DNA of 51,814 bases from Pseudomonadota bacterium (GCA_039800145.1 JBDLRJ010000089.1:1-51814), one strand, 5' to 3'. Shown: positions 4,253 to 41,240, counted from the first letter of the stretch. Notes: a model not told the origin generated them from the sequence alone. Program-made: numbers and translations.

Positions 4253-4348
4253 CGATGCGAGCGGAGCGGGCACGTTGCCCTTCTCCCTATCGCCCCACGC
4301 GCGCCCTTTCCAGCGCCGCGGAAGGGCGCTTATGTCCCGCGCGTCCGC

Positions 4349-14830: not shown

Positions 14831-15006
14831 AGGCGGGAAAGGTACGACGAAACGCGGCCGTCAGGGCACCGGCACCGACTGCAGCAGGTACGGGTGGTCG
14901 CCGAGCTGCTCTTCAATTCGAAGATCCCGGAACGCAAGCGAGGACGTCCCCGGAAGAACGCCAGGCGCCCTACCCGCTGAGCAACGCTTGCCGCCCCAAG
15001 GCCGGG

Positions 15007-19009: not shown

Positions 19010-19362
19010 GGGGACCTCCCGCGGAGGAAGGCCACCAGGTCCGGGCACGCGGACAAGGCATCCCCCACGTCCTCGCACGCGGGGTGGACGTCCACCCGCT
19101 CCGAGACGCGCAGCAGCGGCGCACGGCACTCGAGGAAGCGCGCGCGGCTCGGGGTGGAGAACTGGAAATCGACGTTGCCGCAGCCCGTGCGGCGCAGGAG
19201 CTCCTCGCTGCACGCGTCGCCCGGCGCGAGCGTCTGGGTGACGGACTCGCACACGGGCTGCGCGCACAACCGCGAGACGAGGTCCTGGCAGACGGCGGCA
19301 TCGTCCGCGGCAGGGCCTGCGCAGGACAGGGAGAGGACGAGGAGCGGTGCGAGGCGTCTCAC
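19006..19362 (-). CDS. Small Cys-rich lipoprotein (118 aa; 8 Cys after the lipid-attachment Cys)
   Basis: Track ORF. It has the MRRLAPLLVLSLSCAG lipobox and a non-Arg-biased composition. Its stop overlaps the next gene's GTG start. Confidence 0.6.
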   Translation of the reverse strand: MRRLAPLLVLSLSCAGPAADDAAVCQDLVSRLCAQPVCESVTQTLAPGDACSEELLRRTGCGNVDFQFSTPSRARFLECRAPLLRVSERVDVHPACEDVGDALSACPDLVAFLRGRSP

Positions 19363-19437
19363 GGGTGCGCGGCAGCGTAGCAGGGCCGCGCGGAGGCGCT
19401 TTCACTGTCCTGCACCGGGGGTTAAGACGCAGGCACC

Positions 19438-20304
19438 ATGTCCGACGCCTGGTTTTCACTGACGGTCGATGTGCAGGAAGACTCGAAGGAGCCGCTGGAG
19501 ACGCGCCTGTACGACGTGGGCGCCACGGGGCTCGAAATCCGCGACCGCGAGGCGCCTCCCATGCCCGGCGTGCGGGGCCCCGCCGCGGGGGAGGCCATCG
19601 TGGTGGGCTGGTTCGGCAGCCTGGCCGAGGCGGAGGCCGCGGCCGGGATGGTGGCCGAGGAGTTCGCCGGCGCGCGCACCCAGGTGGACCGGGTGGAGAC
19701 GCAGGACTGGAGCACCAGCTGGCGCTCGCTCATCAAGAGCGTGCAGGTGGGGCGGCTCTGGGTGGGGCCGCCGTGGGAGCTGGAGAAGGCGCCCGCGGAC
19801 AAGGTGCGGCTCGTCATCGAGCCGAAGATGGCGTTCGGCACCGGGGATCACCCCACCACCTCCCTCTGCCTCGAGGCGGTGGACAGCTACATGGCCGCGC
19901 ACCCCGGCGCCTCGGTCCTGGACGTGGGCACGGGCACGGCGGTGCTCGCCATCGCCGCGAAGAAGCTGGGAGCCTCGCGCTGCGTGGGCCTGGACAACGA
20001 CGTCACCTCTGTGGAACTCGCGCGCGAAAACCTCGTCGAGAACGGGACGCCGGACATCGAGCTCTCCACGAAGACGCTGCGCCACGTGGAGGGCACGTTC
20101 GACCTGGTGCTCGCCAACATCCTCGCCAACACGCTGGTGGAGCTCGCGCCGCTCATCGCGCCCAAGGTGAAGGATCACCTCGTGCTCGCGGGCGTGCTGG
20201 TGCACCAGGAGGCGGAGGTCACCGCGGCGTACGTCGCGCAGGGGCTCAAGCCCGCGGGCACCAAGACGCACAACGAGTGGATCCGCATCGAGCTCCGGCG
20301 GTGA
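19438..20304 (+). CDS. prmA: Ribosomal protein L11 methyltransferase
   Basis: Track ORF of 288 aa. It contains FGTGDHPTTSLCLE, the SAM motif VLDVGTGTAVLAIAAKKLGA and GLDND, and the length is typical of PrmA. Confidence 0.9.
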   Translation: MSDAWFSLTVDVQEDSKEPLETRLYDVGATGLEIRDREAPPMPGVRGPAAGEAIVVGWFGSLAEAEAAAGMVAEEFAGARTQVDRVETQDWSTSWRSLIKSVQVGRLWVGPPWELEKAPADKVRLVIEPKMAFGTGDHPTTSLCLEAVDSYMAAHPGASVLDVGTGTAVLAIAAKKLGASRCVGLDNDVTSVELARENLVENGTPDIELSTKTLRHVEGTFDLVLANILANTLVELAPLIAPKVKDHLVLAGVLVHQEAEVTAAYVAQGLKPAGTKTHNEWIRIELRR

Positions 20305-21032
20305 GCACCCGGCTGCTGCTCCCCGGCGCACAGCCCGGCACGGCGCGCATCGAGGGGGACAAGTTCCACTACCTCGTCCGCGTGCTGCGGCTCGCCGCGG
20401 GGGACGCGCTGCGCGTGTTCGACGGCGCGGGGCTCGAGTTCCCCGCGCGCGTGGAGGCGCTGTCCGACTCGGACGCCGTGCTCTCGCTGGGCGCCGCGGA
20501 AGCCGCGCCCGCGGGCCGCCCGGTGTGGCTGCTGCAGGGGTTGCCCAAGGCGGACAAGCTCGAGTGGGTGGTGCAGAAGGGCACGGAGCTGGGCGCCACG
20601 GACTTCGTGCCGCTGTCGCTCGAGCGCTGCGTGGTGAAGCTGGACGAGGCGCGCGGCGGCAAGAAGGTTCAACGTTGGCAGACCATCGCGGACGAGGCGG
20701 CGCGGCAGTGCGGGCGCGCGGACGTCCCCACCGTCCATGCACCGCGGACGCTCGCCGCGGGTCTCTCCGGGCTGCCGGGCGGCGCGGCGCTGCTGGTGCT
20801 GGACGAAGAGGCACGCTCTCCGTCGCTGGCAGAGGCGCTGCGGGCGCTGCCCGGGGGACAGCCCGTGGCGCTGCTCGTGGGCCCCGAGGGGGGGCTCACC
20901 CGCGCGGAGGTGGACGCGGCACGCGCGGCAGGCGGCATCCCGGTCACCGTGGGCCGGCGCATCCTCCGCACCGAGACGGCGGCGCTGGTGGCCGTGGCGG
21001 CCGTGCAGTTCGTGGACGGCGAGCTGGGGTGA
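20301..21032 (+). CDS. rsmE: 16S rRNA (uracil1498-N3)-methyltransferase
   Basis: A GTG at 20301 overlaps the prmA TGA (GTGA), in the frame of track ORF 19347..21032. The product reads VSTRLLLPG..GDKFHYLVRVLRL..LLQGLPKADKLEWVVQKGTELGATDF..LVGPEGGLTRAEV..VTVGRRILRTETAALVAV, which matches the RsmE/SPOUT family pattern. Confidence 0.88.
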   Translation: MSTRLLLPGAQPGTARIEGDKFHYLVRVLRLAAGDALRVFDGAGLEFPARVEALSDSDAVLSLGAAEAAPAGRPVWLLQGLPKADKLEWVVQKGTELGATDFVPLSLERCVVKLDEARGGKKVQRWQTIADEAARQCGRADVPTVHAPRTLAAGLSGLPGGAALLVLDEEARSPSLAEALRALPGGQPVALLVGPEGGLTRAEVDAARAAGGIPVTVGRRILRTETAALVAVAAVQFVDGELG

Positions 21033-21079
21033 GCCCCGTTGCGCGGCAGCCGCGCGTCGTGCCACCGTTTCACGCCGCC

Positions 21080-21517
21080 ATGGTGTTCCTGCGAACCGCA
21101 CTCGTCTTCTTTTCCCTGAACGCGCCGCTCGCCTGGGCCGGCGATACCGCTGGGGCCGCCCAGGGTCCCATCCGCCTGCCGCCTGCCGAGGCGAAGGCGT
21201 TCCGGAAGGCGCTCGCGGACGCGAGGCTGCTGTCCCACGACGAAGACGCAAAGGGTGCGGTCATCCAGTGCCTTCGCCGCAATGAACCGCCCAGCCGGTT
21301 CTACAGCGCGAGCATCTCGTTCCCGAAGGAGGACCCGCGCGGCGCAGAGAATGCCCGGTCGTTCCAGGCGCTGTGCAAGCTCGTGGAGAAGCGGTTCGGG
21401 GACCTCGCCCTGGGCGCCGCGGGCTCCACCGGAATCGAGACCCCGCCCCTGCGCATCCAGGGCAAGGGGGCGGAGGCCGTCGTCGAGTACGCGCCGTACG
21501 AGCCGGACAACTATTGA
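21080..21517 (+). CDS. Small secreted protein of unknown function (145 aa)
   Basis: An ATG at 21080 lies in the frame of track ORF 20525..21517. It has the signal peptide MVFLRTALVFFSLNAPLAWAGD and a balanced composition (K, F, Y, E present). Its stop lies 2 nt before the next start. Confidence 0.6.
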   Translation: MVFLRTALVFFSLNAPLAWAGDTAGAAQGPIRLPPAEAKAFRKALADARLLSHDEDAKGAVIQCLRRNEPPSRFYSASISFPKEDPRGAENARSFQALCKLVEKRFGDLALGAAGSTGIETPPLRIQGKGAEAVVEYAPYEPDNY

Positions 21518-21519
21518 GC

Positions 21520-23652
21520 ATGACCATGGGTCAGGTGTTCCCGGGCATCCTCGTCCTCGTCGTGCTCGCCCCGGCATTCGGACGGGCAGAAGTCCTGGAG
21601 CCGCTCTACCGGGGCCGCATGCCGGACCCGGACCATCCCGCGGCCGCGTACTGCAAGGCCCATCCATCGCTCTGCACGTGCGCCGTCGAGCAGGAAGAGG
21701 CGTACGAGGATTCGCGCGCCGGAAGGGCGTTCGTGAATGGCTGCGTCGCGCGGTTGCTGGGCGCCAAGAACACCTGGACGGCGTGCAACGGGCAGGTCCT
21801 CTCCTGGCGCCCCGGCGTGCGGTACGACGTGAAGAAGAGGGCCGCAGAAGCCGAGTGCCTCTGCATGGCGGAGAAGCAGCCGCGCAAGCGCGTCTGCGCC
21901 CGCTGGGCCGGCGTGAACGCGGACTTCGGGGCCGAGCGCCCGAAGCACCCCTGGTACACGTGGGGGATTCTCGAGGACGGCGACGGGGAGGCGCCTGGGC
22001 TCCGCTGGAGGTGCAGGCATCCCGGGGTCCCCAACCAGGCACCTTGTAAGGGGAACCCGGTCTCCGAATACCAGCTGAAGCTCACCGGCATGGGCCATTG
22101 GAAACGCGCGAGCACGCCCGCTCCGGGACCCGCGCCCGACGCGTCTCGGTGGGCAGCGGACCGCGACAACGCGGACGAGAACGAGGTGACCTACACCGGG
22201 CGCTACCTGCGCGTCGGAGAGTGGCTCCTGTTCGGGACGGGTGGGAAGCCGGGATGGGCGCAGGGCTCCTTCAGTTGGGAGGAGGTCGACGGCGTGGAGG
22301 TCTCCCGCCGCAGCGGCACCTGGCGGTACTGGACCCGCTACTACTCGCAGCAGATCTGCGATGGCACCGACTGGTGGTTCCCGGATGCCGTGGGGGAGCT
22401 GTTCCCGGTGGGTCCCCGGAAGAGAAGCCTGCCGCGCGGCAAGTGGCTCATCCGCGACGAGGCGAGCAGCACCGGTCAGGAGAACGTCGACCTCGGAGAG
22501 GAAGGAACCAGCGCCTGGGTCGAGCGCTCGTTCAAGATCACGCGGGATCCGAGTTCCGACACCTTCATCTCCACCCCTGGGCCCGTCACCCGCCTCTACC
22601 GCGCCCCGGGGCTGGCCCTTGGGAAGGACGGTCGCCTGGACCAGGTCAGCGTCGAGGGGCCGGTCCTGCCGCGCACGCTGCGCACCACCGCGGGCCCGCG
22701 GCCGTTGTCCCAGTACCGCACCCGAGACTCGGTCCAGCTCGAGGCCGGGCGCGTCCAACACCTCCTCCAGGAGGCGTGGAACTCGGTGCACGGGAAATGG
22801 ACGAAGCACGGCCTGGAGGTGTCCTGGCGGGACGGGAAGGTGTGGGAAATCCGGGAATGGACGTGGGACGTGCCCCTGTCCGCCCACCGGTTCGGCCCCT
22901 CTTCTACCGAGGAGCGGTCCTGGTCTCCGGGCTCGGTCGAGCGGACGAAGTACGGAATGCTGACGAACGCCCGGAGCGCGCGCGACGTCACCGGGGAGGC
23001 CGGCGCGTGGGCCGTGGTGGAACCCAACGAAGCTGAACTGGGGGCGAGGCAATACTTCCCACCCATCCCGCAATCCGAGTGGTTCGGAATTGCCAGCCCA
23101 CGCGAGGAGTACCGTCTCAAGGCGCCGGCCCGGAACACGTCCTCCGTGGTGTGCGAGTCCGACGAGGACTGCAAGCGCGGAGAACAATGCAAGGCGAACG
23201 CCTGCCTATCGTTCTGGGAGGAAGGGTGGCGCAAGGATCGCGTTCCCCCATTCCTCTCGGTGGGCGGCGCTGGGACGTTCTTCGCGCTGAAGCAGGCCTC
23301 GGACGAGTCGGGGGGGCCGTGGCTGGTGGAGGCGCGGGTGCGCGCGGACGCGGACGGACTCGTCGACGAGGCATCCTGCCGTTTCCGCGTGGGAAACGAC
23401 GGGGCTCCGTGGACGCTGGTCTGGCTTCGCTCCGGGGGTGAGTATGAACACGTGGGGATGGATACGTGGATGGCGGAGCAGGCGGCTGGCACGTCACCCG
23501 CACGGGCGGAGCGGAGAGCCTGTTTCAACCTCCCGCTGCCCACGGAGCTTGCGCCCGGCGAGGTGAACCACTGGCTGCGGACGCGGGTCCTCGGGCGTGG
23601 GCTGGACGAGTACCTCGGACCCGCACTCGAGGCGTCCGCAGCCCCGCAGTGA
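21520..23652 (+). CDS. Secreted Cys-rich protein of unknown function, paralogue A (710 aa)
   Basis: An ATG at 21520 lies in the frame of track ORF 21373..23652. It has the signal peptide MTMGQVFPGILVLVVLAPAFGRAEV. The composition is Trp/Tyr/Lys-rich and non-junk. It shows long colinear similarity to the 27455..30181 product. Confidence 0.8.
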   Translation: MTMGQVFPGILVLVVLAPAFGRAEVLEPLYRGRMPDPDHPAAAYCKAHPSLCTCAVEQEEAYEDSRAGRAFVNGCVARLLGAKNTWTACNGQVLSWRPGVRYDVKKRAAEAECLCMAEKQPRKRVCARWAGVNADFGAERPKHPWYTWGILEDGDGEAPGLRWRCRHPGVPNQAPCKGNPVSEYQLKLTGMGHWKRASTPAPGPAPDASRWAADRDNADENEVTYTGRYLRVGEWLLFGTGGKPGWAQGSFSWEEVDGVEVSRRSGTWRYWTRYYSQQICDGTDWWFPDAVGELFPVGPRKRSLPRGKWLIRDEASSTGQENVDLGEEGTSAWVERSFKITRDPSSDTFISTPGPVTRLYRAPGLALGKDGRLDQVSVEGPVLPRTLRTTAGPRPLSQYRTRDSVQLEAGRVQHLLQEAWNSVHGKWTKHGLEVSWRDGKVWEIREWTWDVPLSAHRFGPSSTEERSWSPGSVERTKYGMLTNARSARDVTGEAGAWAVVEPNEAELGARQYFPPIPQSEWFGIASPREEYRLKAPARNTSSVVCESDEDCKRGEQCKANACLSFWEEGWRKDRVPPFLSVGGAGTFFALKQASDESGGPWLVEARVRADADGLVDEASCRFRVGNDGAPWTLVWLRSGGEYEHVGMDTWMAEQAAGTSPARAERRACFNLPLPTELAPGEVNHWLRTRVLGRGLDEYLGPALEASAAPQ

Positions 23653-23726
23653 CCGAGGCGGCGCGTTCCTCCGCGCTTCCCGTGGGACTGTCAGGAGTGG
23701 CGACGAGCAGCTTCAAAAATGACCGT

Positions 23727-23744
23727 CCACGCCTAGACGCGTGG
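23727..23744. promoter_or_regulatory. Inverted repeat CCACGC-N6-GCGTGG in the 109-nt gap upstream of the 23762 gene, next to the only A-rich run (CTTCAAAAATG) in the region
   Basis: Read directly: ccacgc ctagac gcgtgg, followed by gCATAGTg (a weak extended -10-like TGgCATAGT) about 11 nt before the ATG. The stem is only 6 bp and there is no other support. Confidence 0.2.
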
Positions 23745-23761
23745 CATAGTGCTCGCCCCCC

Positions 23762-25912
23762 ATGAACACCTCGCGACTCTCCGTTTCCATCCTGGCGCTT
23801 GCGGCCCTGGTGTCCAGCTGCACCGACAAGCACCTTTCTGCCGGCCGCGACTACCTGCTCGCGGGCGAGCTCGCCACCGCCTCCACGGAGTTCAAGGCCT
23901 CCGTGGCGACCAACGAGAACAGCGTCCCGGCGCGCGGCGCGCTGCTCGCCACGCTGGTGCTGCAGCCCCGCTCGAACCTGGACGTCTCCGTCTTCCTCGA
24001 GTCCGCCCCCTACCAGGAGATGCTGCGGCAGAAGGACGTCCCGGAGACCACGCGCGAGCGGCTCACGCAGGGCATCATGAAGGTCCGCAAGTCCCTGCAG
24101 GACTCGGGCATCCGCACCCAGGACAACGAGGACGCCCTCAAGGTGGTGGCCGCCGCGGCGAAGGAGTTCGACGCCATCGTCGCGCGCGACTGGATGAAGC
24201 AGCGGCGCGACTACCGCGCGGTGATGCTCAGCGCGGGCTGCATGGTGGCGAACGAGGGCATCCTGGAGCAGGGCTCGCGCGCCGTGCTCGCGGAAAAGGG
24301 GGACGTGAAGCTGTCCCGCGAGGAGCTGGTCCTGGCCCGGTTCCTCGGCCCGGCCTTCTTCAAGAAGATCGCCGCCTCCGCGGACAACCGCGAGGCCACG
24401 GACCACGAGCGGGCGGTGAACTTCTACCGCCTCCAGCACGCGCTGGACATCGCGCGACGCGTGTTCGAGATGAAGCCCGGGCCCGGTCCCCGCAACCTGC
24501 CGGGCATGGATGCGTACGGCCAGTCCGGGGCCCGCGAGCTGGCGCGTGGACTGGTCCAGGGTGCCACGGTGCCCTACGGGCTGGTGACGGTGGGCTCCTC
24601 CTCCGAGGACCCGGACGAGCGCACGGCCTCCGTCTTCTTCCCCCGCTCGTTCCCCTCGAAGGGACCGCAGCTGGTCATGGCCACCATCCACCCGGACGAG
24701 ACCCAGGAGCTCAACCGCGCGTGGGCCGTCGAGGGCTCGTCGCTCTCCGAGGTGAAGGTGGTGGTGAAGCGCGACGGCAAGGAGCAGGCGCAGGACGGAA
24801 ACCTCCTGCCCGGCAGCGCCGCCATGTTCGGCCACGGGTACCACGAGGCCTCCGGGACGTGGAACCTGGTCTACTGGGACGCGGACATGGCGGTGCTCCG
24901 CGTGGCCGTGGGCACCCTCAAGGACGGGGTGCTGACGCTGACGCCGGACATGGACGTGTACGCGCGGCTCGGCATCTCGAACGACGTGGAGGTGCTGCGC
25001 GCGGTGGGCATGACGAAGCAGGCCATGTTCGACGTGCGCTCCCGCGAGCGCGCCCGCGAGCAGCTGGACGAGCTGTTCCGCGCCGCCTCCGAGGCGCGCC
25101 TGGACCTCCACAGCCGCGCCTCCTCCTGCTACTCGGCCGACAACCTCGCCTCGTCCACGCGCCCCTCGGAATGCTCGGGCGGTGAGCCCGTCCCCGCGGA
25201 CAGCCAGTACCTCGCGGCCCGCAAGCGGAAGAACCAGGTGCAGCCCGCGGTGGGCATGAAGCTGCGCGTCACGGGGAACTCCAACAACCACAACTACCGC
25301 GTGGGGGACGTGGTGACGGTGACGGACATCGACAAGCGGGACGGGACCGTGCGCGCGCTGGGCGGCTCCGGGCGCAAGGGCAACTGGCTCGCACCCGAGG
25401 ACTGGGAGCGGGCGGACCGCCCCTCGCGGCGATTCTCCACGGCACCTTCCGAGGGAACGTCGGTCCGGGTGGTCCGAAACTCCAACGGCCACAACTACAC
25501 GGTCGGCGCCCTCTACGAGGTGAGCACCTCCCTCAGCGACCAGATGTTCCGCGCCCGCAACGACGCCGGGGTGGAGGGCACGGTGCTGCTGCTGCGGGAC
25601 GTGGAGCCGGCGAACGGCACGTGGGGCGGGCCGTACCTCTCCGCCTCCGCGGTGAAGGATCCCTGGGGCACCCCGTACCGCGTGGGCCTGCAGCCCGAGA
25701 CGGGACGGCTCGTGGTGGCCAGCTGCGGCCCGGACCGCGCCTGCGCCGGGGACCTCCCCTCGCTCGTGTCCGGCACCAGCGGCACCCTGGCACCGGACCA
25801 GGTGACGGCGGCGGTCAACATGGGCCCGGACAACGACGACATCCGCGTGGTGGAGACCAACGGACCGGTCGCGGCCGAGTACGTCGCCTACGATCCTTCC
25901 GAGGGTGACTAG
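23762..25912 (+). CDS. Lipoprotein (716 aa) with two tandem ~55-aa NSN-x-HNY modules and a C-terminal type II secretion GspG (pseudopilin)-like domain
   Basis: Track ORF. The lipobox is MNTSRLSVSILALAALVSSC. The C-terminus reads NGTWGGPYLSASAVKDPWGTPYRVGLQPETGRLVVASCGPDR. This matches the conserved W-GPYL...DPWG-x-PY...S-x-G-x-D core of T2SS protein G domains. Confidence 0.8.
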   Translation: MNTSRLSVSILALAALVSSCTDKHLSAGRDYLLAGELATASTEFKASVATNENSVPARGALLATLVLQPRSNLDVSVFLESAPYQEMLRQKDVPETTRERLTQGIMKVRKSLQDSGIRTQDNEDALKVVAAAAKEFDAIVARDWMKQRRDYRAVMLSAGCMVANEGILEQGSRAVLAEKGDVKLSREELVLARFLGPAFFKKIAASADNREATDHERAVNFYRLQHALDIARRVFEMKPGPGPRNLPGMDAYGQSGARELARGLVQGATVPYGLVTVGSSSEDPDERTASVFFPRSFPSKGPQLVMATIHPDETQELNRAWAVEGSSLSEVKVVVKRDGKEQAQDGNLLPGSAAMFGHGYHEASGTWNLVYWDADMAVLRVAVGTLKDGVLTLTPDMDVYARLGISNDVEVLRAVGMTKQAMFDVRSRERAREQLDELFRAASEARLDLHSRASSCYSADNLASSTRPSECSGGEPVPADSQYLAARKRKNQVQPAVGMKLRVTGNSNNHNYRVGDVVTVTDIDKRDGTVRALGGSGRKGNWLAPEDWERADRPSRRFSTAPSEGTSVRVVRNSNGHNYTVGALYEVSTSLSDQMFRARNDAGVEGTVLLLRDVEPANGTWGGPYLSASAVKDPWGTPYRVGLQPETGRLVVASCGPDRACAGDLPSLVSGTSGTLAPDQVTAAVNMGPDNDDIRVVETNGPVAAEYVAYDPSEGD
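25250..25612 (+). repeat. Protein-level tandem duplication inside the 23762..25912 gene (two ~52-54-codon modules, about 25250..25405 and 25451..25612)
   Basis: Module 1 is GMKLRVTGNSNNHNYRVGDVVTVTDIDKRDGTVRALGGSGRKGNWLAPEDWE. Module 2 is GTSVRVVRNSNGHNYTVGALYEVSTSLSDQMFRARNDAGVEGTVLLLRDVE. They share G-x-x-[LV]-R-V-x-x-N-S-N-x-H-N-Y-x-V-G. Confidence 0.6.
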
Positions 25913-25922
25913 GGGTCCTGCC

Positions 25923-27452
25923 GTGAAGACGCTCAAGCTGGGACTGCTCCTGCTGGTGATGCCGGGCTGCCTCACCATCCAGGAGAGCAAGCGCATCGTC
26001 GAGACGCCGGTGCGGACGGAGCGGGAGACCTCGGTCGTGCCGGGCAGCGCTCGGTACGACGTGTCCGGGCGCGCGCGGGGCGCGGACCTGGAGGTGCTGG
26101 CCGCGCGCGAGGAGCTGTGCAGCTCCCGCGACGTGCAGGTGCTCCACCAGGTGGAGCTGACGGAGCGCACCGCCGAGTCCTACGCCCCCACGGGCTGGCT
26201 GCTGGGGCTGGGGCTTCCCCTGGGAACGCTCGGGGGCCTGGCGCTCGCCGCGGGGGCGCCCGCCACCGGCTACGACGACGAGGGGCGGACCGCGCTGAGC
26301 CCGGCGACCTGGGCCGTGCTCGCGGGCAGCACCATGGCCGTGGCGGCCATCCTGGACCTGCTGCGAACGCGTAACTCGGAGGAGGACCGCGGCGAGGTGA
26401 AGCGCGCGGGCCCCAGCAGCCAGTCCGCGTGCCGCAAGCGCGTCCCGACCGACGCGGTGTTCCAGTTCTCCTCCGGCAGGACCCAGCCCCTGCGCTTCGA
26501 CGCCCGCGGCGTGGCGCGTGCCTCCATGGTGGAGGCCGCCGCCCCCGAGGTGCCCGGGCCGCGGACACCGGCAGGGCTCCGCTGGGAGGAGCAGGTGCAC
26601 GCGGTGGACGTGCCGCAGGCGGAGAGCGAACACCTGGTCGCGGCGCTGCGGGGGCTGCCGGGCTCGCGCGTGGCGCGGGACATCCGCGAGCGCGCCGAGC
26701 GGGCCTGCCTCTCGCTCGTGGAGCGGGCGCGCGCACAGGGGACCACCTCCGAGCCTGCGCTCGCGGCGTGGGACTCTGCGCGGGCGGGCTGCGGCGAGAC
26801 GTGGACTGCCGCCTACGCCACCGAGCATAAGCAGGTGGAGGCCGCGGTGGCCCAGGCGCAGCGCGTCCGGCTCGCGCAGCAGTGCGAGGCGGGACTCGCG
26901 CAGGCGGAGGGACAGCTGCGCACCCAGCCGTCCGCCGCGGCCACGAGCGTGGAAGAGGTCCGCAAGTCCTGCACGCTCGCCGGGGTGGCGCGCTTCGCGG
27001 ACGTGGAGCGCGCCGTGGCGGCGGAGGTGGAGCGGCTGCGGCAGGAGGCGGAGCGCGTGCGCGCGGAGATGGAGCGGCGCGCGGCAGAGCAGCAGGCCCT
27101 GCAGGCGCTGCAGCAGGACCGCACGGCGTTCCTCGCGGCGCTCCGGGGCGGGCGGTTGGAAGACGCCCACGCCACGGTGGCGGGCAACGCGTTGCTCCAG
27201 GCCAACCTGCAGAAGGCCGCCGAGGTGGAGGCGCTGCTGGTGGGCCAACTGGAAGCCGCGGGGCAGCGCGCCACGCGGGCGGAGGGGGCCGAGTCTCCCG
27301 AGGCGCTCTGTGCCGCGCGGCGGCTCTACGTGGCCCTCTTCGGCGAGGTGAAGTGGGTGGCGCAGCTCACGCGGTCCACCAAGAACCTCGGCCGGTCGGA
27401 CGCCCGCGCGGGCTCCTCGTTCTTCAACCTCGCCGAAGCCTGCGGGAGATAG
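25923..27452 (+). CDS. Lipoprotein of unknown function: Gly-rich hydrophobic hairpin plus an Ala/Glu/Arg-rich helical C-terminal half
   Basis: Frame of track ORF 25905..27452. I prefer GTG 25923 (VKTLKLGLLLLVMPGC lipobox), 10 nt after the upstream stop. Its stop lies 2 nt before the next ATG. Confidence 0.65.
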   Translation: MKTLKLGLLLLVMPGCLTIQESKRIVETPVRTERETSVVPGSARYDVSGRARGADLEVLAAREELCSSRDVQVLHQVELTERTAESYAPTGWLLGLGLPLGTLGGLALAAGAPATGYDDEGRTALSPATWAVLAGSTMAVAAILDLLRTRNSEEDRGEVKRAGPSSQSACRKRVPTDAVFQFSSGRTQPLRFDARGVARASMVEAAAPEVPGPRTPAGLRWEEQVHAVDVPQAESEHLVAALRGLPGSRVARDIRERAERACLSLVERARAQGTTSEPALAAWDSARAGCGETWTAAYATEHKQVEAAVAQAQRVRLAQQCEAGLAQAEGQLRTQPSAAATSVEEVRKSCTLAGVARFADVERAVAAEVERLRQEAERVRAEMERRAAEQQALQALQQDRTAFLAALRGGRLEDAHATVAGNALLQANLQKAAEVEALLVGQLEAAGQRATRAEGAESPEALCAARRLYVALFGEVKWVAQLTRSTKNLGRSDARAGSSFFNLAEACGR

Positions 27453-27454
27453 CC

Positions 27455-30181
27455 ATGGTCCGTTCCGCTGCCGTTCTCTCGCTGCTGCTGTGCGCCCCGT
27501 TCGCAGCCGCAGACCGCCTGGACGCCCTGGACGTGACGAAGCTCAAGGTGACGGACCACCCGGCCGCCGCGTTCTGCCGCCAGAACCCGCAGAAGTGCAC
27601 CTGCGGCATCGCGCGGGAGCGGGCCTACCGGGACACGCCGGAGGGCAAGGGCTTCATCGCCGCGTGCGTGGGCCGGCTGCTCGGGGCCAAGAACGGCTTC
27701 ACGGACTGCAGCGGTTCGTCGGTGAGGTGGCGCCCCACGGCCACGTACGAGGGGCGCAAGCGGTCCTCGGAGTGGGAATGCACCTGCATGGCGAACAAGA
27801 AGCCTGACCAGGTGACGTGCCTTCGCTGGGCGGGCGTGGACGCGGACTTCGGTGCGGAGAAGGCGAAGCACCCGTTCATTGCCTGGTCCGTCTCGAAGCT
27901 GGATGCGTCCGACGGGCGGACGACGGAGCGCTGCCGCCACGGGGGGCTCCCGAACGAGCGGGCCTGCACCTTCGGGACATCCATGGACGACGACGACGTG
28001 GCCGCCTACGACTTCCTCCCGGCGACCACGGGGCGCCACGGCCGCGCCACCACCGGCAGCCCGGGCGAGGCCCCGGACGCGGCCTCGTACAAGGAGGACC
28101 GGGACAACTCGGACCCGGACGACGTCACGCACCAGGGCGTCCGCTACCTCCGCAAGGGGGAGTGGCTCATCTGGGGCAGCGGCGGGAAGCGGGGCTGGGC
28201 GCGGGGAAGCTACGCGTGGGAGCGCGTCAACGACCGCGACGTGGCACGCCGCAGCGGCACCTGGCGCTACTGGGAGAACGACGGCAAGCCCCAGTCCGTG
28301 GGGGAGCTCTTCACGGTGGGACCGTGGAAGCGGAGCCTGATGCGGGGCACGTGGACGGTCTCGAGCGACAACGGCCGGTACATGGAGCAGCCGTACAAGG
28401 TGCTGAGGGATCCCGCGCGGGACCGCTTCGTGTCCGTCCAGAATGGCCTGGCCCGCCTGTACGCCTCGTCCGTGCTCAACGCCATCGGCGCGGGCGGGGT
28501 GCTCGAGGCGGCCGTCGTGAACAGCGAGGAGAAGTCGCTGACCCTGGAGACGGCGCAGGGCCAGAAGACGCTCGAGCGGTTCTCCACCCGCGACTGGGTG
28601 ATGCTCGGGGCCGGGGGACGGCCCACGCGGTACGTGCAGTACGCCTGGAACTCCATCCTCCGGAAGTGGCTGCAGCACGGGGTGGAGGTGACGTGGGGCC
28701 AGGGGCGCGTGACGGAGATCACCGACTGGGCGTGGAGCGTCCCGGTCTCGTCGTGGCGCTACGCCCCCTCGGGACTCGCGCAGCTGCCGTGGCCGGAGGG
28801 CAGCGTGGAGCGCACCACGTACGGACTGCTCACCGAGCACGACGACGCCGTGCAAGCCTGCCGGGACCGCGGGGCCTGGGCCGTGGTGGAGCCGGACGCG
28901 GACGAGCTTGCCACCGGGAACTTCTTCCCCGCCATCGCGCGCGAGGACTGGCTCGGCGTGGCGAGTCCGCTCGAGGAGTACCGCCGCAAGCAGCCCACGC
29001 CGAACGCCTCGCAGGTCGTCTGCGAGTCCGACGCGGAGTGCCAGCCGGGCGAGACGTGCGAGGGCAACGCCTGCATCTCGCTGTGGGAGGAGGGCTGGCG
29101 GAAGGACCGGGTCGCCCCGTTCCTGCAGCTGGAGGACCGCCGCGCCTACTTCAGGTACGAGGGCCAGTCCTGTGCCGGGTGCAGCCCGCCTTCGGAGGAG
29201 GGGCCGTGGCTGGCCCAGGCCACCGCGCGCTTCGGGCCGGACGCCGTGCTCGCGCACGCCACGTGCCAGTACCGGGTGGGCGCCCCCAACAAGCCCTGGC
29301 AGCTGGCGTGGCGCCGCACCGGCGGGGGATACGCGCCCCTCAAGCTCGAGGAGTGGATCTCCGAGCAGGACCAGGGCACCCCGGAGGCACGCGCCTCGGA
29401 GCGCGCCTGCTTCAACCTGCCGCTCCCGGACGAGCTCCCCTCCCCGGAGCTTCAGACGTGGCTGTCGGCGCGGCTGCTCGGGCGTGGGCTGGACGAGTAC
29501 GTGAAGCCCGTGCTCGAGGCCCCGCCCCCCGCGGCCTGGGCGGCCTGCCCCGGCGAGGCGGCCAGCTCGGACGGCATGGCATGGCAGTCCTCCGTGGCCG
29601 CGTGGGTGTCCGCGCGGGGAGAGCCGCTGCGCGCCTGCGTGCCCATGCTCACGGCCTGGAGCAACCCGCTGGTGATGGAGCGCGTCAACCGCGCCATCCG
29701 GGGGGCCTTCACCGGCGCCGAGGGCGAGGTGCGCACCCCGACCGGCACGGACCTGGTCGGCCAGGTGGGGCTCGCGGCGCGCGGCCTGTTCGGCCTCACG
29801 CTGAAGGTGGAGAGCCAGTCGGCCGTGCGGCGCACGGTGCGGCTCGCGTGGGACATGGAGCGTGGGCAGGCGGTGCGCTTCGAGGACGCGTTCGCGCCGG
29901 GGCTGCGCGGCAAGGCGCTGCTGGCGCTGGCGCGCAAGGCAGCGCCTGACACCTTCAAGGCCGCGGCAGCCGGCTGTGCCGCCGCCTGGGGCGCCGGAGA
30001 CGACAAGCGGACTCCCACTTTCGGACTCGGCGGCACCCCGGATGCGCCCACCGTCTTCCTCGGCGAGTCCTTCCCCCAGAACGCGGGGGCGCCGTCCCGG
30101 TGCGACTGGTGGGTGGAGCTCCCGGTCAGCGAGCTCTCGCCGAAGCTCGCGGAGAAGAGCCCGCTCAAGCGGCTGCTGTAG
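27455..30181 (+). CDS. Secreted Cys-rich protein of unknown function, paralogue B (908 aa), with an extra ~190-aa C-terminal domain (DUF3298/RsiV-like, tentative)
   Basis: An ATG at 27455 lies in the frame of track ORF 26882..30181. It has the signal peptide MVRSAAVLSLLLCAPFAAAD and is colinear with paralogue A. Shared blocks include HPAAA[YF]C..CTC, LLGAKN, RWAGV[ND]ADFGAE, RCRH.G.PN..C, DRDN.D, GEWL, RRSGTWRYW, VGELF.VGP.KRSL.RG.W, GSVERT.YG.LT, GAWAVVEP, VVCESD..C..GE.C..NAC.S.WEEGWRKDRV.PFL, ACFNLPLP and LLGRGLDEY. Confidence 0.8.
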   Translation: MVRSAAVLSLLLCAPFAAADRLDALDVTKLKVTDHPAAAFCRQNPQKCTCGIARERAYRDTPEGKGFIAACVGRLLGAKNGFTDCSGSSVRWRPTATYEGRKRSSEWECTCMANKKPDQVTCLRWAGVDADFGAEKAKHPFIAWSVSKLDASDGRTTERCRHGGLPNERACTFGTSMDDDDVAAYDFLPATTGRHGRATTGSPGEAPDAASYKEDRDNSDPDDVTHQGVRYLRKGEWLIWGSGGKRGWARGSYAWERVNDRDVARRSGTWRYWENDGKPQSVGELFTVGPWKRSLMRGTWTVSSDNGRYMEQPYKVLRDPARDRFVSVQNGLARLYASSVLNAIGAGGVLEAAVVNSEEKSLTLETAQGQKTLERFSTRDWVMLGAGGRPTRYVQYAWNSILRKWLQHGVEVTWGQGRVTEITDWAWSVPVSSWRYAPSGLAQLPWPEGSVERTTYGLLTEHDDAVQACRDRGAWAVVEPDADELATGNFFPAIAREDWLGVASPLEEYRRKQPTPNASQVVCESDAECQPGETCEGNACISLWEEGWRKDRVAPFLQLEDRRAYFRYEGQSCAGCSPPSEEGPWLAQATARFGPDAVLAHATCQYRVGAPNKPWQLAWRRTGGGYAPLKLEEWISEQDQGTPEARASERACFNLPLPDELPSPELQTWLSARLLGRGLDEYVKPVLEAPPPAAWAACPGEAASSDGMAWQSSVAAWVSARGEPLRACVPMLTAWSNPLVMERVNRAIRGAFTGAEGEVRTPTGTDLVGQVGLAARGLFGLTLKVESQSAVRRTVRLAWDMERGQAVRFEDAFAPGLRGKALLALARKAAPDTFKAAAAGCAAAWGAGDDKRTPTFGLGGTPDAPTVFLGESFPQNAGAPSRCDWWVELPVSELSPKLAEKSPLKRLL

Positions 30182-30187
30182 GGGACT

Positions 30188-31327
30188 TCACGGCGGCGGG
30201 GGCTGTCTGCAAGGACGTTCAACACCCACGCTCCCGGCGGCGCGCTGCACGGCGTCCACCGGCAGCCCGGGCAACAGCCCCGCGCGCACCTTCAGCCGGA
30301 GGATGCGCCCCGCCGCCTCCCGCGCGAGCGCCCTGCCCCCGGGCCGCGCGAGCTCCTCGCGCAGCACCTCCGAGAGCTCGTCCAGCACCTCGGCGGACCC
30401 CGACACGAGCAGCAGGTCGTTCCCCGCCCGGAACGCGGCGCGCGCCACCTCGCGCTGGCGTCCACCCACGAAGCCGCGCAGCGGCGGGGCCGCCAGGTCG
30501 TCCGTCATGGTGACGAAGCCCTGCTCGTGCGCGAGCGACACCAGCGCCTCGGAGAAGATGGCCGGCTGGCCGCCGTAGAAGGAGAAGCCCAGGTTGGCCA
30601 GCATGACGCCGCCGAGCGCCTCCCCCGCGTGCGCGAAGGGACGCAGGTGCCGGTTGAACTCGGCCGCGGACCGGTCCACCACCACGCGCTGGTAGTCGGT
30701 GTTGCGCGCCACCTCCCCGTAGCCCGGGAAGTGCTTGCCAATGGGGATGACGCCCTCGGCCCACAGCCCCCGGCTGAAGGCGGCCGAGCGCTCCGCCACC
30801 TCCAGCGGCTCCGTGCCGAGCGAGCGCGCCGTGGCATGCATGAGGCCACTTCCCGCCAGGTCCAACACCGGGGCCAGGTTGCAGTTGAGCCCCAGCCCCG
30901 CCATGGCCGCGCCCACCCTGCGCCCCCAGGCCTCCACCTCCGCCGGCGGAAGCCTCCCGAGCACCTGCCCCGAGGGCATGGCGCGCAGGCCCGGCAGGTG
31001 CGAGAGCCGGTTCACGCGCCCGCCTTCCATGTCCACCGCCACCAGGGGCGGCACCCGCGACCTCGCCCGCAGGGACGAGAGCAGCCCGTCCAGCTGCGAG
31101 GGGCTGCGCAGCACTGCACCGAACAGCAGCACCCCGCCGGGGGCCGGCTGGCCGGCCAGCGGCCGCACCGTGGTCCCCACCACCATCTGCGCGGCACACT
31201 CCTCGTCCGACAGCAGCCGCAGCCACGCCTCCGCGGTGGCCTGCTCGCGGCCGCGCGCGGCCCCATCACCCCGGGGAGTGCTCCCGGCGAGCAGCAGCGG
31301 GCCGAGCAGGAGGACGACAATCGACAC
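30188..31327 (-). CDS. Exported glycoside hydrolase family 3 beta-N-acetylhexosaminidase (NagZ-like)
   Basis: The last 379 codons of track ORF 30188..33424 (-). The start is taken at GTG 31327 (VSIVVLLLGPLLLAGS, a hydrophobic leader). GH3 blocks are VAVDMEGGRVNRL, NCNLAPVLDL and IGKHFPGYG. The upstream ~700 codons of the track ORF are antisense junk. Confidence 0.8.
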   Translation of the reverse strand: MSIVVLLLGPLLLAGSTPRGDGAARGREQATAEAWLRLLSDEECAAQMVVGTTVRPLAGQPAPGGVLLFGAVLRSPSQLDGLLSSLRARSRVPPLVAVDMEGGRVNRLSHLPGLRAMPSGQVLGRLPPAEVEAWGRRVGAAMAGLGLNCNLAPVLDLAGSGLMHATARSLGTEPLEVAERSAAFSRGLWAEGVIPIGKHFPGYGEVARNTDYQRVVVDRSAAEFNRHLRPFAHAGEALGGVMLANLGFSFYGGQPAIFSEALVSLAHEQGFVTMTDDLAAPPLRGFVGGRQREVARAAFRAGNDLLLVSGSAEVLDELSEVLREELARPGGRALAREAAGRILRLKVRAGLLPGLPVDAVQRAAGSVGVERPCRQPPPP

Positions 31328-31393
31328 GGGCGGCCTTGTCGCACGGAGAGACGCGAAAGCAAGCGCGCCGCCGTGGCAGGATGCCGGCTGGCC

Positions 31394-33487
31394 ATGACGT
31401 CCCCTGCCCTGCTCGCAGTGTTCGCTGCCCTCGCGCTCGCAAGCCCGCGTGCGCCGCCGGGTGACCCGGGGTTCCCCTCCGTGGACGCCGCCGGCGAGCA
31501 GGGGCTGCTCCCCGCCAGTCCCGCCCTCCCCGCGTGGACGCTCGGCACCTGGCGCCAGGGGCCCGCCGAGGCGGTCCGCACCGCGGGGCCGCAGCGGCGC
31601 GCTTCCTGGCTCGTGCCGCGCGTGGACGCGGGAGAGGTGCAGCACGGCATGGTGCGCGCGAGCGTGGCCTACGGATCCGGCACACCGGACTTCTCCGTGC
31701 TCGTGCGCTTCCGCCCCGGCACCGGCAAGCCCGAGGAGTTCGACGCGTACGGCGTCTCGGTGGAGCCCGGCCGGCTGTTCCTGCAGCGCTTCGCGCGCGG
31801 GGCCGCGTACAAGATGGGACCCTCCGTCCCGCTCAAGGGGATGAAGGGGCCCCGCGCGCTGGAGGTGGTGGTGTTCCTGGCGGGTCCCCACCTCGCCGCG
31901 TTCCTCTACGACGCGAAGACGCTGGAGCTGCTGGGCTCGCTCGCCCACCACGATCCGCACCTCCGCACGGGCCACGTGGGGGTGCGCGTGGACGGCGCGC
32001 GCGCGGCGGTGTTCAGCGTCAAGCGCCTCTCCGTCACCAGCGGCGCGGCGCCCGCGGCGGCGAAGGAGGCCTTCGCCCCGTCCCCCGAGCGGCGCGTGCG
32101 GGTGGCCTCGGAAGATCTCGGGCGCGTGCCGGATGCGCTGCGCGGGGGCGTGCTCGAGCCGCTGCCGGGGGAGCGTGGCCCCGGGGTGGAGCTGCTGCTG
32201 CGGCGCCCCTCGGACGTGGAGCGGCTGCGGCGCTCGGGCGTGACGGTGCTCGCCGAGTCGGGGCTGGTGGCGTGGATGCACCTGGACGCGCGCTACCGCC
32301 GCGCGCTCGTCGCCCGGCCCGGCGAGGTGCCGCCCCCCGGCACCTACAAGGACTGGGAGATGGTGGAGGCGCAGCTGCGCGCGGCCGCGGCGGACCACCC
32401 GGACCTGGTCCGCCTGCACGCGCTCGGCACCACGCACCAGGGACGCACGGTGTGGGCCGCGCGCGTCACCGAGTCCCCGGACGGCCCGGTGGACCGGCCC
32501 GCCGTCTTCATCAACGGCGGCCACCACGGGGACGAACTCCTCGGCACGGAGTTCGCGTTGGACGCCCTTGCAGAGGTGCTCGCGCGCCGGGAGACACCCG
32601 CGGGACGCCGCCTGCTCGGCGCGGTGGACCTGTGGTTCGTGCCGCTGGTCAACCCGGACGGCAACGCGGCCTTCGTGCGCCTGAGCCGCGCGGCCGGGCG
32701 CAAGAACGGGCGGGACCTGGACGGCGACGGCCGGTACGACGTGGACGAGGGCGTGGACCTCAACCGCAACTACCCCTTCGAGTGGGGCGGCCTCGGGGAG
32801 GAGGGCAGCCGGTCCCGGCGCAGCAGCGACCTGTACCGCGGCCCCGCGGAGGCGAGCGAGCCGGAGACCCAGGCGGTGGTGGGGCTCGCGAGGGCGCAGC
32901 ACTTCGTCGCTTCCCTCTCGTTCCACACCGTGGCCACCGCGGTGCTCTACCCGTACACGGTGGGCCGCGCGCGCCCCCCCGAGCCGAACGTGGCGCGCCA
33001 GGTGGCGGAGGGGCTCGTCGCCGGGGGGCCGCGGCAGGTGAGCGGCCGGCCCTACCGGGTGTTGCCGAGGCTCTACCCGGTGGACGGCACGGACCAGGAC
33101 TGGCACCACTGGGCGCACGGCACGGTGGCGCTGCTCGTGGAAGGCCCCGTCCACAACCCGCTCGAGCCCGACAAGGCGCGCGCCGCGGTGGAGGGGACGC
33201 GCCTGCTGGTGACGCGGCTGCTCGAGCGCGTGGTGGACGGACCGCGGCTGTCCCTCCGCGTGCGGGGCGAGGACGGCAACCCGCTCGAGGCCGAGGTGCG
33301 CGTGGAGGGGCTCCAGCTGCACGCCGGGGAGCGCTGGAAGAGCCGGGAGAGGGATGGCCGGTTCGACCTGCTCGTGCCGTCTCCCGGCCCCTGGCGCGTG
33401 GAGGTGCACCGCGAGGGCTTCCACCCCGCCACCGCGGAGCTGCGCGTGGGGGAGCTCTCCGAGGTGCGCCTGCGGCCCGCGGGCTGA
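31394..33487 (+). CDS. Secreted M14-family zinc carboxypeptidase with an N-terminal LamG/DUF1080-like module (tentative) and a C-terminal carboxypeptidase-regulatory-like beta-sandwich
   Basis: An ATG at 31394 lies in the frame of track ORF 30527..33487 (MTSPALLAVFAALALASP). M14 blocks are INGGHHGDELLG (HxxE zinc ligands), PLVNPDG, DLNRNYPFEW and SLSFHT. The tail LSLRVRGEDGNPLEAEVRVEG..GRFDLLVPSPGPWRVEVHREGF is CarboxypepD_reg-like. Confidence 0.85.
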   Translation: MTSPALLAVFAALALASPRAPPGDPGFPSVDAAGEQGLLPASPALPAWTLGTWRQGPAEAVRTAGPQRRASWLVPRVDAGEVQHGMVRASVAYGSGTPDFSVLVRFRPGTGKPEEFDAYGVSVEPGRLFLQRFARGAAYKMGPSVPLKGMKGPRALEVVVFLAGPHLAAFLYDAKTLELLGSLAHHDPHLRTGHVGVRVDGARAAVFSVKRLSVTSGAAPAAAKEAFAPSPERRVRVASEDLGRVPDALRGGVLEPLPGERGPGVELLLRRPSDVERLRRSGVTVLAESGLVAWMHLDARYRRALVARPGEVPPPGTYKDWEMVEAQLRAAAADHPDLVRLHALGTTHQGRTVWAARVTESPDGPVDRPAVFINGGHHGDELLGTEFALDALAEVLARRETPAGRRLLGAVDLWFVPLVNPDGNAAFVRLSRAAGRKNGRDLDGDGRYDVDEGVDLNRNYPFEWGGLGEEGSRSRRSSDLYRGPAEASEPETQAVVGLARAQHFVASLSFHTVATAVLYPYTVGRARPPEPNVARQVAEGLVAGGPRQVSGRPYRVLPRLYPVDGTDQDWHHWAHGTVALLVEGPVHNPLEPDKARAAVEGTRLLVTRLLERVVDGPRLSLRVRGEDGNPLEAEVRVEGLQLHAGERWKSRERDGRFDLLVPSPGPWRVEVHREGFHPATAELRVGELSEVRLRPAG

Positions 33488-33606
33488 GAACTGGAACGGG
33501 GCGCCGCGGACGTTAGTCTGCGCCCGCCATCGATCCGTCGCCTCCAGCCCCTGCTGCCTCCGCCCCCGCGCGCCCGCTCCTCGGCAGGCGCTCCGGGCTG
33601 GGGCTC

Positions 33607-35803: not shown

Positions 35804-35874
35804 GGGGGCGCACACTCCACCACAAGACAGGAGGATTTTCTCAGGGCGGCGAACGGGCCATACTCTCGCTCTAC

Positions 35875-36963: not shown

Positions 36964-37020
36964 GCGCCGGGACGGCCGCGTTCGCCGCGGGGCAGCGCTC
37001 CCGCGGGCACGCGTCCCCTC

Positions 37021-39972: not shown

Positions 39973-39999
39973 GGAAACGGAAGTCCTGGGGTGCTCGGG

Positions 40000-41115: not shown

Positions 41116-41240
41116 GGGCGGCTGGGAAAAGCGGCGCAGACTCGCCCACTCGAAAGACAGGCGTCAACCGAACGTGCTCCCGACGCGCGCCTCCGGGTGC
41201 CTTGCAGTGCCCGGTCGTCACGCTAAGGTCCCCGGCGCCC

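Follow-up and report, generated by a model that had tools for sequence, protein, structure and literature searches.

Organization of the g1-g5 locus

The contig JBDLRJ010000089.1 of a Pseudomonadota bacterium (assembly GCA_039800145.1), positions 1-51814 of which (51,814 nucleotides [nt]) are referred to as the window, carries a cluster of five plus-strand genes at positions 21080-30181, between the 16S rRNA methyltransferase gene rsmE and a convergent GH3 gene. The original prediction for this cluster was an undescribed envelope or extracellular system, built from exported proteins and lipoproteins bracketed by two paralogues. Our analysis revealed that three of the genes, designated g3, g4, and g5 and hereafter called the trio, represent a conserved unit that is able to sit in differing neighborhoods.

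Since the GC content of the window amounts to 74% and spurious frames crowd its lists of open reading frames (ORFs), the true frames were picked by codon-position GC. The first gene, g1 (21080-21517), encodes a small secreted protein of 145 amino acids (aa) with a signal peptide and 2 Cys residues. It is followed by g2 (21520-23652; 710 aa), which encodes paralogue A, by the lipoprotein genes g3 (23762-25912; 716 aa) and g4 (25923-27452; 509 aa), and by g5 (27455-30181; 908 aa), which encodes paralogue B, a secreted, disulfide-rich multidomain protein. The intergenic gaps are 2, 109, 10, and 2 nt, respectively, and the Shine-Dalgarno-like motifs of g4 and g5 lie within the preceding gene. All five frames exhibited coding-like composition, with a GC content at third codon positions (GC3) of 0.87-0.96 and a higher GC content at first than at second positions. 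Gene calls made independently in three further assemblies of this organism agreed with this structure: the contigs from JGI 3300043427 and JGI 3300044701 gave products of 145, 710, 716, 509, and 908 aa, and the contig from SRR35356174 gave 162 aa for g1 and 708 aa for g2. Collectively, codon-position GC and the three assemblies bore out the proposed coordinates, common direction, and spacing of the genes.

Export signals were read straight from the sequence. Type-I-like signal peptides were found in g1 (..PLAWA/GD), g2 (..APAFGRA/E), and g5 (..PFAAA/D), and lipoboxes were found in g3 (LVSSC) and g4 (VMPGC), so that every product looks exported, as had been proposed. The lipidated Cys of g3 is Cys20, with the N terminus MNTSRLSVSILALAALVSSC/TDK constituting the lipobox, and that of g4 is Cys16 within a conserved GCLTIQE segment. 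The signal peptides and lipoboxes are kept in orthologues, with LPGC and LGGC as the lipoboxes in those of g4.

The sole Pfam match above the cutoff across g1 to g5 was a partial T2SSG domain in g3, and searches with the full products and with isolated domains gave no other Pfam, NCBIfam, PADLOC, or PHROGs assignment. A Pfam scan of six members of the g2/g5 family and nine isolated domains at E values up to 10 returned only T2SSG and a subthreshold DUF7107. Neither family nor PDB matches were obtained for g1, and PDB sequence searches with all proteins and profiles revealed no relatives. Among the PADLOC anti-phage defense models, 0 families were matched by the cluster products, the PHROGs phage families gave only subthreshold noise in g3, and no enzyme family or catalytic domain was recognized. 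The claim that the products belong to undescribed families was thus upheld by these profile searches.

Rarity and conservation of the cluster genes

In a word-indexed search of 5.8 billion proteins, g5 retrieved only itself and g2, g3 retrieved two homologues (P0004 and P0005, with identities of 78% and 56%, respectively), and g4 retrieved one, the full-length homologue P0012 (75% identity). Further relatives of g4 are an N-terminal fragment (37% identity) on contig L002 and a C-terminal fragment (41%) on contig L007. An exhaustive HMMER search, run with a profile of g2 and g5 against 1.84 billion cluster representatives, yielded seven proteins, both queries included. Pattern scans with both family alignments across 185,579 GTDB species genomes and JGI metagenome contigs gave no matches, and therefore the organism is unrepresented among the species genomes. 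An NCBIfam scan of the flanking genes returned no family specific to a lineage, so that placement in the Myxococcota is putative, and the accessions of the samples retrieved no papers. The g3, g4, and g5 families have fewer than ten known members, which so far come only from an uncultured high-GC lineage.

Despite this rarity, the order of the trio could be compared between lineages. The close relative L001 carries prmA-rsmE-g1-g3-g4 and the start of g5, with 3-nt gaps and with g2 absent. Its proteins are 78% (g3), 74% (g4), and 63% (g5, N-terminal 52 residues only) identical to those of the window, and its g1 product (55% identity) is the sole g1 homologue. In a distant lineage, the identities are 55% for g3, 37% for g4, and 38% for g5, and the flanks are wholly different from those of the window. 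There, on contigs L002 to L006, two genes, one for an unrelated lipoprotein and one for a small helical protein, precede g3 and g4, the junction of which overlaps by 1 nt in L002 and L003. Contigs L007 and L008, which come from the same samples as L002 to L006, carry the C terminus of g4 and, after a 45-nt gap, an orthologue of g5 that is full length and includes the C-terminal extension (P0006 in L007; 38% identity), followed by genes for an acyl-CoA synthetase and PhaC. Both g2 and g1 are missing from this lineage (for g1, 5′ of the trio genes in L002). Hence, of the proposed system with co-occurring genes, the g3-g4-g5 order recurs in L001 and in L002/L003 taken with L007/L008, but the five-gene set does not. 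The suggested stoichiometric layout bracketed by paralogues has to be abandoned: g2 is missing in L001, g1 and g2 are missing in L002, and the locus is emptied in another relative, represented by a 39-kb contig from JGI sample 3300059473.

The 39-kb contig carries rsmE and, downstream of it, the series GH3-M14-permease-FGE-sulfatase-CapA/PEGA-CHAP, as in the window. The left flank is conserved: rsmE (20301-21032, plus strand; PF04452 and PF20260) is directly preceded by prmA (19438-20304, plus strand; TIGR00406) in the window, and this flank recurs in L001 and in the 39-kb relative. The conserved right flank is the NagZ-like GH3 gene (30188-31327, minus strand; PF00933, E value of 1e-32). Between these flanks, the rsmE-GH3 interval spans 9.15 kb in the window (21033-30187) versus about 1.8 kb in the 39-kb relative, which makes this interval a variable slot.

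The ratio of nonsynonymous to synonymous substitution rates (dN/dS), estimated by the Nei-Gojobori method between the window and L001, was 0.33 for g3, 0.31 for g4, 0.44 for g1, and 0.30 for rsmE. All four genes are constrained, and the purifying selection on g3 and g4 is similar to that on rsmE.

Origin of g1 and g2

The g1 gene is a lineage-specific accessory gene; its dN/dS is 0.44 and its GC3 is 0.88. The paralogy of the two large Cys-rich products, claimed at the outset, was confirmed: in a pairwise comparison, g2 and g5 are 45% identical over 712 columns (E value of 0), that is, along approximately 700 aa. The g2 protein consists of a signal peptide, a Cys-rich N-domain, a MORN-like β-hairpin array, a Cys knot, and a conserved C-domain, and it lacks the C-terminal extension of approximately 220 residues found in g5.

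In a neighbor-joining tree based on 432 shared columns, g2 grouped with a g5-type gene of contig L010 (bootstrap of approximately 0.8) and apart from g5. At 48%, g2 and g5 have diverged from each other as deeply as the lineages have. Furthermore, GC3 amounts to 0.87-0.88 in g1 and g2 versus 0.95-0.96 in g3 to g5, and the region of 22-24 kb forms a local GC minimum (0.69 versus approximately 0.74). The lower GC across 21080-23652 fits a separate history of the g1-g2 part. Besides, g2 was found only in the organism of the window and is missing from L001. Tree topology, divergence, GC3, and the absence from L001 rule out that g2 is a recent tandem copy of g5. Because of the grouping with L010, the deep divergence, the low GC3, and the absence from L001, we conclude that g2 is an old paralogue, with either a loss in L001 or an acquisition in the organism of the window accounting for its distribution. 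No flanking repeats or mobile-element signatures were detected around g2 or the whole segment, except for the diverged g2/g5 stretches themselves.

Domain structure of the trio proteins

All features of the trio proteins described below are encoded on the plus strand. The structure of g5 was modeled from a six-sequence alignment with a mean predicted local distance difference test (pLDDT) score of 56, and residues 30-435 of the model are usable. Residues 35-200 (27557-28054) form a Cys-rich α/β N-domain (pLDDT of approximately 70-90) for which no Pfam or PDB sequence match was found. Eight of its cysteines (C41, C48, C50, C71, C109, C122, C160, and C171) are invariant in all family members, even at 25% identity. 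The cysteines further downstream also occur in conserved, even-numbered sets, four at residues 523-540 and the pairs 604/652, 698/728, and 841/883, and such sets are what would be expected of disulfide-bonded extracytoplasmic proteins in an oxidizing compartment.

The N-domain is followed at residues 220-435 (28112-28759) by a β-hairpin array with recurring G-x-W motifs, modeled as approximately 18 consecutive strands with pLDDT values of mostly 65-85. In a Foldseek search of BFVD, a database of viral predicted structures, the top matches of g5 were MORN-repeat proteins (E values of 7e-8, 1.2e-4, and 1.9e-4; probability of 1.0), and this fold similarity falls on the well-modeled part of the protein. 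Residues 523-540 (29021-29074) constitute a four-cysteine knot of the pattern CxxxxxCxxxxxCxxxxC. The corresponding profile, PF23416 (DUF7107), scored below the cutoff in 3/6 members of the g2/g5 family, and TIGR04201 matched very weakly. The Cys columns of the knot are kept in 5/5 members that have residues there, including P0009, which is named "Cys-rich repeat protein" at NCBI, and the L010 gene is the only one without the segment.

The C-terminal extension of g5 (residues approximately 700-908; 29552-30178) is not present in g2 and is kept in P0006, P0008, and the L010 gene. Foldseek searches of the PDB with the g5 model placed 3cyg (E value of 4e-4), the RsiV-lysozyme complex 5jen (3e-3), and the DUF3298 structures 4e72 and 3s5t within the top 15 matches; their E values ranged from 4e-4 to 0.2 and their target-normalized TM scores from 0.24 to 0.48, with aligned residues unreported and pLDDT values of 40-68 over residues 700-908. 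We placed this match on residues approximately 700-908 because of the size of the targets, the order of secondary structures, and the motif W-[DS]-x-x-x-G-x-x-[LV]-x-F-x-D-x-F, which we take to be typical of DUF4163/DUF3298 domains. As judged from the model, the extension probably adopts an RsiV-like DUF4163/DUF3298 ligand-binding fold. Exactly this set of structures (3cyg, 5jen, 4e72, and 3s5t) is listed as the DUF4163/DUF3298 structural relatives of RsiV (PMC5014341).

Several observations concern the genes that adjoin distant members of the g5 family. On contig L009, an unassigned 227-aa protein is encoded at 1505-2188, 5′ of the g5-like gene P0008, and 3′ of it, at 5192-6516, lie the genes for a Cys-rich protein of 253 aa and for a protein with a SEC-C-like motif at its end. 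The contig of P0009 also contains a gene of approximately 230 aa upstream, and the P0008/P0009 clade may therefore own a partner gene. Family scans of the L009 neighbors and of the genes 5′ of the L002 trio genes gave no assignments.

In the g3 protein, we distinguished a helical N-region (residues approximately 25-266), a β-domain (approximately 330-400), two SH3-like repeats, and a pseudopilin-like C-terminal domain, with the secondary structure taken from a low-confidence model. The repeats, at residues 495-615 (25244-25606), are each approximately 55 aa long and share the motif G-x-[LV]-RV-x-x-NSN-x-HNY-x-[VL]-[GA], which is readable in the sequence and kept across the alignment of g3 homologues (A2). 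Foldseek searches of the PDB with the repeats retrieved KOW6-7 (5ohq), 9coj, the SH3-like tandem of kin17 (2ckk), and the tandem Tudor domain of 53BP1 (E values of 2e-4 to 4e-3), and the modeled repeats match a tandem SH3-like/KOW/Tudor barrel fold. They are followed at residues 617-663 (25610-25750) by a partial GspG (T2SSG)-like globular domain. PF08334 matched with an E value of 2.3e-5 and 24.8 bits (cutoff of 21), and weak matches to GspG chains of the PDB were also obtained. The GspG-like domain that had been noted in g3 is thus present above the cutoff, but only over profile positions 52-98 of 108. The equivalog model TIGR01710 failed (21.8 bits versus a cutoff of 88.85), and g3 displays neither a prepilin leader of the G/FTLIE type nor a hydrophobic helix after the lipobox.

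The g4 protein, which yielded no family or PDB match, is composed of a short β N-module, a Gly/Ala-rich hydrophobic hairpin, and a helical, Ala/Glu/Arg-rich region of approximately 350 aa with conserved cysteines. Residues 92-147 (26196-26363) include two GxxxG-rich hydrophobic segments (92-111 and 129-147; Kyte-Doolittle hydropathy of ≥1.6), followed by a conserved LDLLRT. The orthologues in L001 and L002 have at least one segment each at the same threshold, and the Gly/Ala-rich region is conserved in the alignment; residues 92-147 represent a candidate membrane-inserted hairpin.

The predicted relative of this hairpin lipoprotein upstream of the cluster, a 477-aa lipoprotein encoded at 17576-19009 on the minus strand, proved to be related to g4 in part. 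It shares the g4-type N-terminal module, consisting of a lipobox, a short β-region, and a paired hydrophobic hairpin (29% identity over 128 aa; pairwise E value of 4e-5, tblastn E value of 1e-3), and its lipobox and hairpin segments (residues 92-110 and 138-158) match those of g4 in position. Beyond this module, the two proteins are unrelated. No family or PDB match was found for the upstream lipoprotein, and the isolated hairpins of both proteins did not match the Pfam glycine-zipper families at E values up to 10. A 131-aa ORF without a family match (19006-19401, minus strand) precedes the lipoprotein gene with a 4-nt overlap, and both are oriented divergently from prmA.

Conserved block upstream of g3

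The gap between g2 and g3 contains a conserved noncoding block of approximately 70 nt (23690-23758, plus strand) located just 5′ of g3, with the palindrome CCACGC-N6-GCGTGG. The block is nearly identical in L001, where it is preceded by g1, and not by g2 as in the window. It is conserved above the flanking coding DNA, and between the window and L001 the arms of the palindrome are identical, whereas the loop differs. A structured RNA was rejected, with folding z scores of −1.2 and −0.6 relative to shuffled sequences and no Rfam match. We did not find a sigma-70-type consensus at the block, and the scans for sigma-70 promoters and terminators were uninformative. The block is more likely to be a candidate promoter or operator than a structured RNA, and if it acts as such, g3, g4, and g5 would have their own control region.

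Other genes of the window

Downstream of the cluster, cell wall and capsule genes extend over 30188-41163. They comprise the NagZ-like GH3 gene, an M14 carboxypeptidase gene, a gene for a CHAP-domain protein, and two CapA/PGA_cap paralogues, one of them fused to PEGA. The 39-kb relative has one CapA/PEGA gene and, at the position of the first CapA paralogue of the window, an unassigned 365-aa gene. Upstream of the cluster, a bacterial potassium channel of the inward-rectifier type is encoded at 13949-14860 on the minus strand (Pfam IRK, IRK_C, and Ion_trans_2), and a 1,451-aa protein is encoded at 3761-8116, the only assigned part of which is a short TPR region. No extracytoplasmic function (ECF) sigma factor gene adjacent to the cluster was found among the flanking genes scanned.

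Discussion

The results correct the picture of a five-part, paralogue-bracketed machine to that of a dispensable trio with local additions. We interpret the products of g3, g4, and g5 as an accessory, lipoprotein-anchored binding or scaffolding complex that is locally supplemented by g1 and g2, and we give this reading a probability of roughly 50%. The trio would be a rare accessory envelope module of three genes, probably with its own control element upstream. A binding, scaffolding, or sensing role is likelier than an enzymatic one because no catalytic domain was detectable. In such a complex, g4 would be anchored to the membrane by its lipid and the Gly-rich hydrophobic hairpin, and its long helical region could extend into the periplasm as a scaffold. 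A second lipoprotein, g3, would contribute protein- or glycan-binding modules in the form of the tandem SH3-like barrels and the pseudopilin-like globular domain. The g5 protein may be a soluble, disulfide-stabilized partner with binding surfaces on the MORN-like β-hairpin array and the RsiV-like DUF4163/DUF3298 domain, and g2 may be a variant of this partner without the last domain. In the periplasm or on the cell surface, the assembly might serve to capture or sense some macromolecular ligand. In favor of this reading are the synteny of the trio across differing flanks, its tight spacing with Shine-Dalgarno-like motifs in the preceding genes, the block kept 5′ of g3 with or without g2, the dN/dS values of g3 and g4, the even-numbered cysteine sets, the conservation of the export signals and the hairpin, the MORN-, RsiV/DUF3298-, SH3-, and T2SSG-like matches, and the lack of matches to enzyme, defense, or phage families.

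A number of observations weigh against this interpretation. Assembly of the three products is inferred, as are its topology, ligand, and phenotype. The structural models are of limited quality: the g3 model has a mean pLDDT of 37.6, with only the repeats at residues 495-615 (pLDDT of roughly 45-74) being usable, and that of g5 is poor in its C-terminal half. For the RsiV-like and MORN-like parts of g5, the assignment is at the fold level only. Indeed, Pfam MORN and MORN_2 gave no sequence match with six family members or the isolated segment, and neither PF13739 and PF11738 nor a solved member of these families was matched by the isolated extension, by four aligned members taken singly, or in a PDB profile search. 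The trio is carried by three lineages only, so the synteny statistics are thin, and in the distant lineage L002 and L007 are separate contigs that are joined by shared samples and complementary g4 fragments. On L009, a g5-like gene (24% identical) lies in an unrelated context without g3 or g4. The g5-type gene of L010 (64-2421) is one frame broken by a single in-frame TAG (between ..TFEVT and RSEQDP..) and is either a pseudogene or affected by a sequencing error. Finally, the rsmE-GH3 interval of the 39-kb relative holds nothing but a 439-aa gene and a short ORF of 83 aa. This ORF, which shows 60% identity to g5 residues 32-76, ends at a stop codon; GH3 follows the remnant, and the C-terminal approximately 320 residues of the 439-aa gene product, read on the near-identical contig L014, are unrelated to g1 to g4. 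Since the genes are absent or decayed in this relative with the same flanks and one family member contains an in-frame stop, the module is dispensable.

The same observations could be explained if there were no system at all and the cluster consisted of functionally unrelated exported proteins in a variable slot, their shared order reflecting common descent and cotranscription. High-GC large genomes hold many orphan exported genes, the content of the locus varies between relatives with identical flanks, g5-like genes are solitary elsewhere, as on L009, the synteny rests on three lineages, and the physical assembly of the trio is only inferred. However, g3 and g4 were never seen apart, and the order and tight spacing of the trio are kept at protein identities of 37-55% with both flanks different. 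Common descent of the neighborhood does not explain the order of the trio, because the flanks in the distant lineage are completely different. We consider the absence of any system somewhat unlikely.

Another explanation is that the cluster is a conflict or arms-race locus. The g5 and g2 proteins would then be secreted effectors, or decoys or inhibitors of foreign cell wall hydrolases (for example, of lysozyme-like enzymes via the RsiV-like domain), and g3 and g4, anchored in the envelope, would assist them as partners in presentation, export, or protection. Gain, loss, and truncation of paralogues and a nonsense allele across lineages are typical of loci with rapid turnover, and the RsiV-like fold suggested by the model would suit such a role. 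SH3-like barrels of bacterial envelopes are often peptidoglycan binding, and in the window the cluster neighbors the peptidoglycan-related GH3, M14, and CHAP genes. On the other hand, these neighbors are missing in the distant lineage, which has acyl-CoA synthetase and PhaC genes instead, the toxin, inhibitor, and defense families were all unmatched, and the dN/dS values correspond to ordinary purifying selection. Moreover, lysozyme binding is not shown by all DUF4163/DUF3298 proteins and is no general property of the fold (PMC5014341). Taken together, a conflict locus appears clearly improbable.

A further reading makes the trio an undescribed, lipoprotein-anchored receptor or shield in the envelope of a diderm bacterium, with the RsiV-like and MORN-like parts of the secreted, disulfide-rich g5 capturing an incoming cell wall hydrolase or some other foreign macromolecule and g2 diversifying the specificity. 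This reading is a long shot; if it held true, the trio would be a counterpart of the RsiV lysozyme receptor in a Gram-negative bacterium, independent of a sigma factor. That g3 acts as the pseudopilin of an apparatus related to pseudopili or type II secretion is hardly credible, and membership of g3 in the pseudopilin family is effectively refuted, since, despite the above-gathering PF08334 score and the weak GspG structure matches, the PF08334 match is limited to part of the profile, TIGR01710 stayed far below its cutoff, g3 begins with a lipobox instead of a prepilin leader and hydrophobic helix, so that every defining feature bar part of the globular domain is missing, and no genes of type II secretion systems or type IV pili occur among the genes scanned in the window (all but its last approximately 4 kb) or in the related loci.

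The module is not assignable to any described system. Such unassignability does not equal demonstrated new biology. The practical value of the results is modest at present and lies in the correction to a trio, in the domain boundaries, and in drawing attention to the variable rsmE-GH3 slot. If g3, g4, and g5 do assemble, they would constitute a new type of envelope complex made from pseudopilin-, SH3-, MORN-, and RsiV-like fold modules.

Comparison with known systems

The best PDB folds of the g5 model belong to the RsiV extracellular domain and other DUF4163/DUF3298 proteins (3CYG, PA4972 [4E72], BF2082 [3S5T], and Mpt64), which carry the domain, as g5 probably does, on an exported protein. 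However, g5 lacks both a transmembrane segment and an anti-sigma domain at the N terminus, no ECF sigma factor is encoded next to it, and its sequence does not match PF11738, PF13739, or any PDB chain. The C terminus of g3 resembles GspG (PF08334/TIGR01710) in the C-terminal β-sheet portion of its globular domain, and a DPWG-x-PY-type motif belongs to this match; in contrast to GspG, this domain forms the tail of a 716-aa lipoprotein, and no secretion genes are nearby.

Both the lipobox and the two Gly-rich hydrophobic helices that characterize the SlyB/YfgH-type glycine-zipper 2TM (two-transmembrane) outer membrane lipoproteins, as outlined in two preprints (bioRxiv 10.64898/2025.12.22.696046 and 10.64898/2026.06.08.730324), are found in g4, where the paired Gly/Ala-rich segments with GxxxG lie approximately 75 residues past the lipidated Cys. 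However, g4 does not match the Pfam glycine-zipper families, its membrane location is predicted, and it is much larger owing to the 350-aa helical C-terminal region. The single four-cysteine knot in the middle of g2 and g5 is reminiscent of the myxobacterial Cys-rich repeat proteins (TIGR04201 and DUF7107), but the scores are below the cutoffs, the knot occurs in one copy, and MYXO-CTERM or PA14-type domains were not detected. Finally, the array of g5 and g2 (residues 220-435) superposes best on MORN-repeat proteins and shows recurring G-x-W hairpin motifs, whereas here it is located in a secreted protein, where it is flanked by a novel Cys-rich domain on one side and by other domains without assignment on the other.

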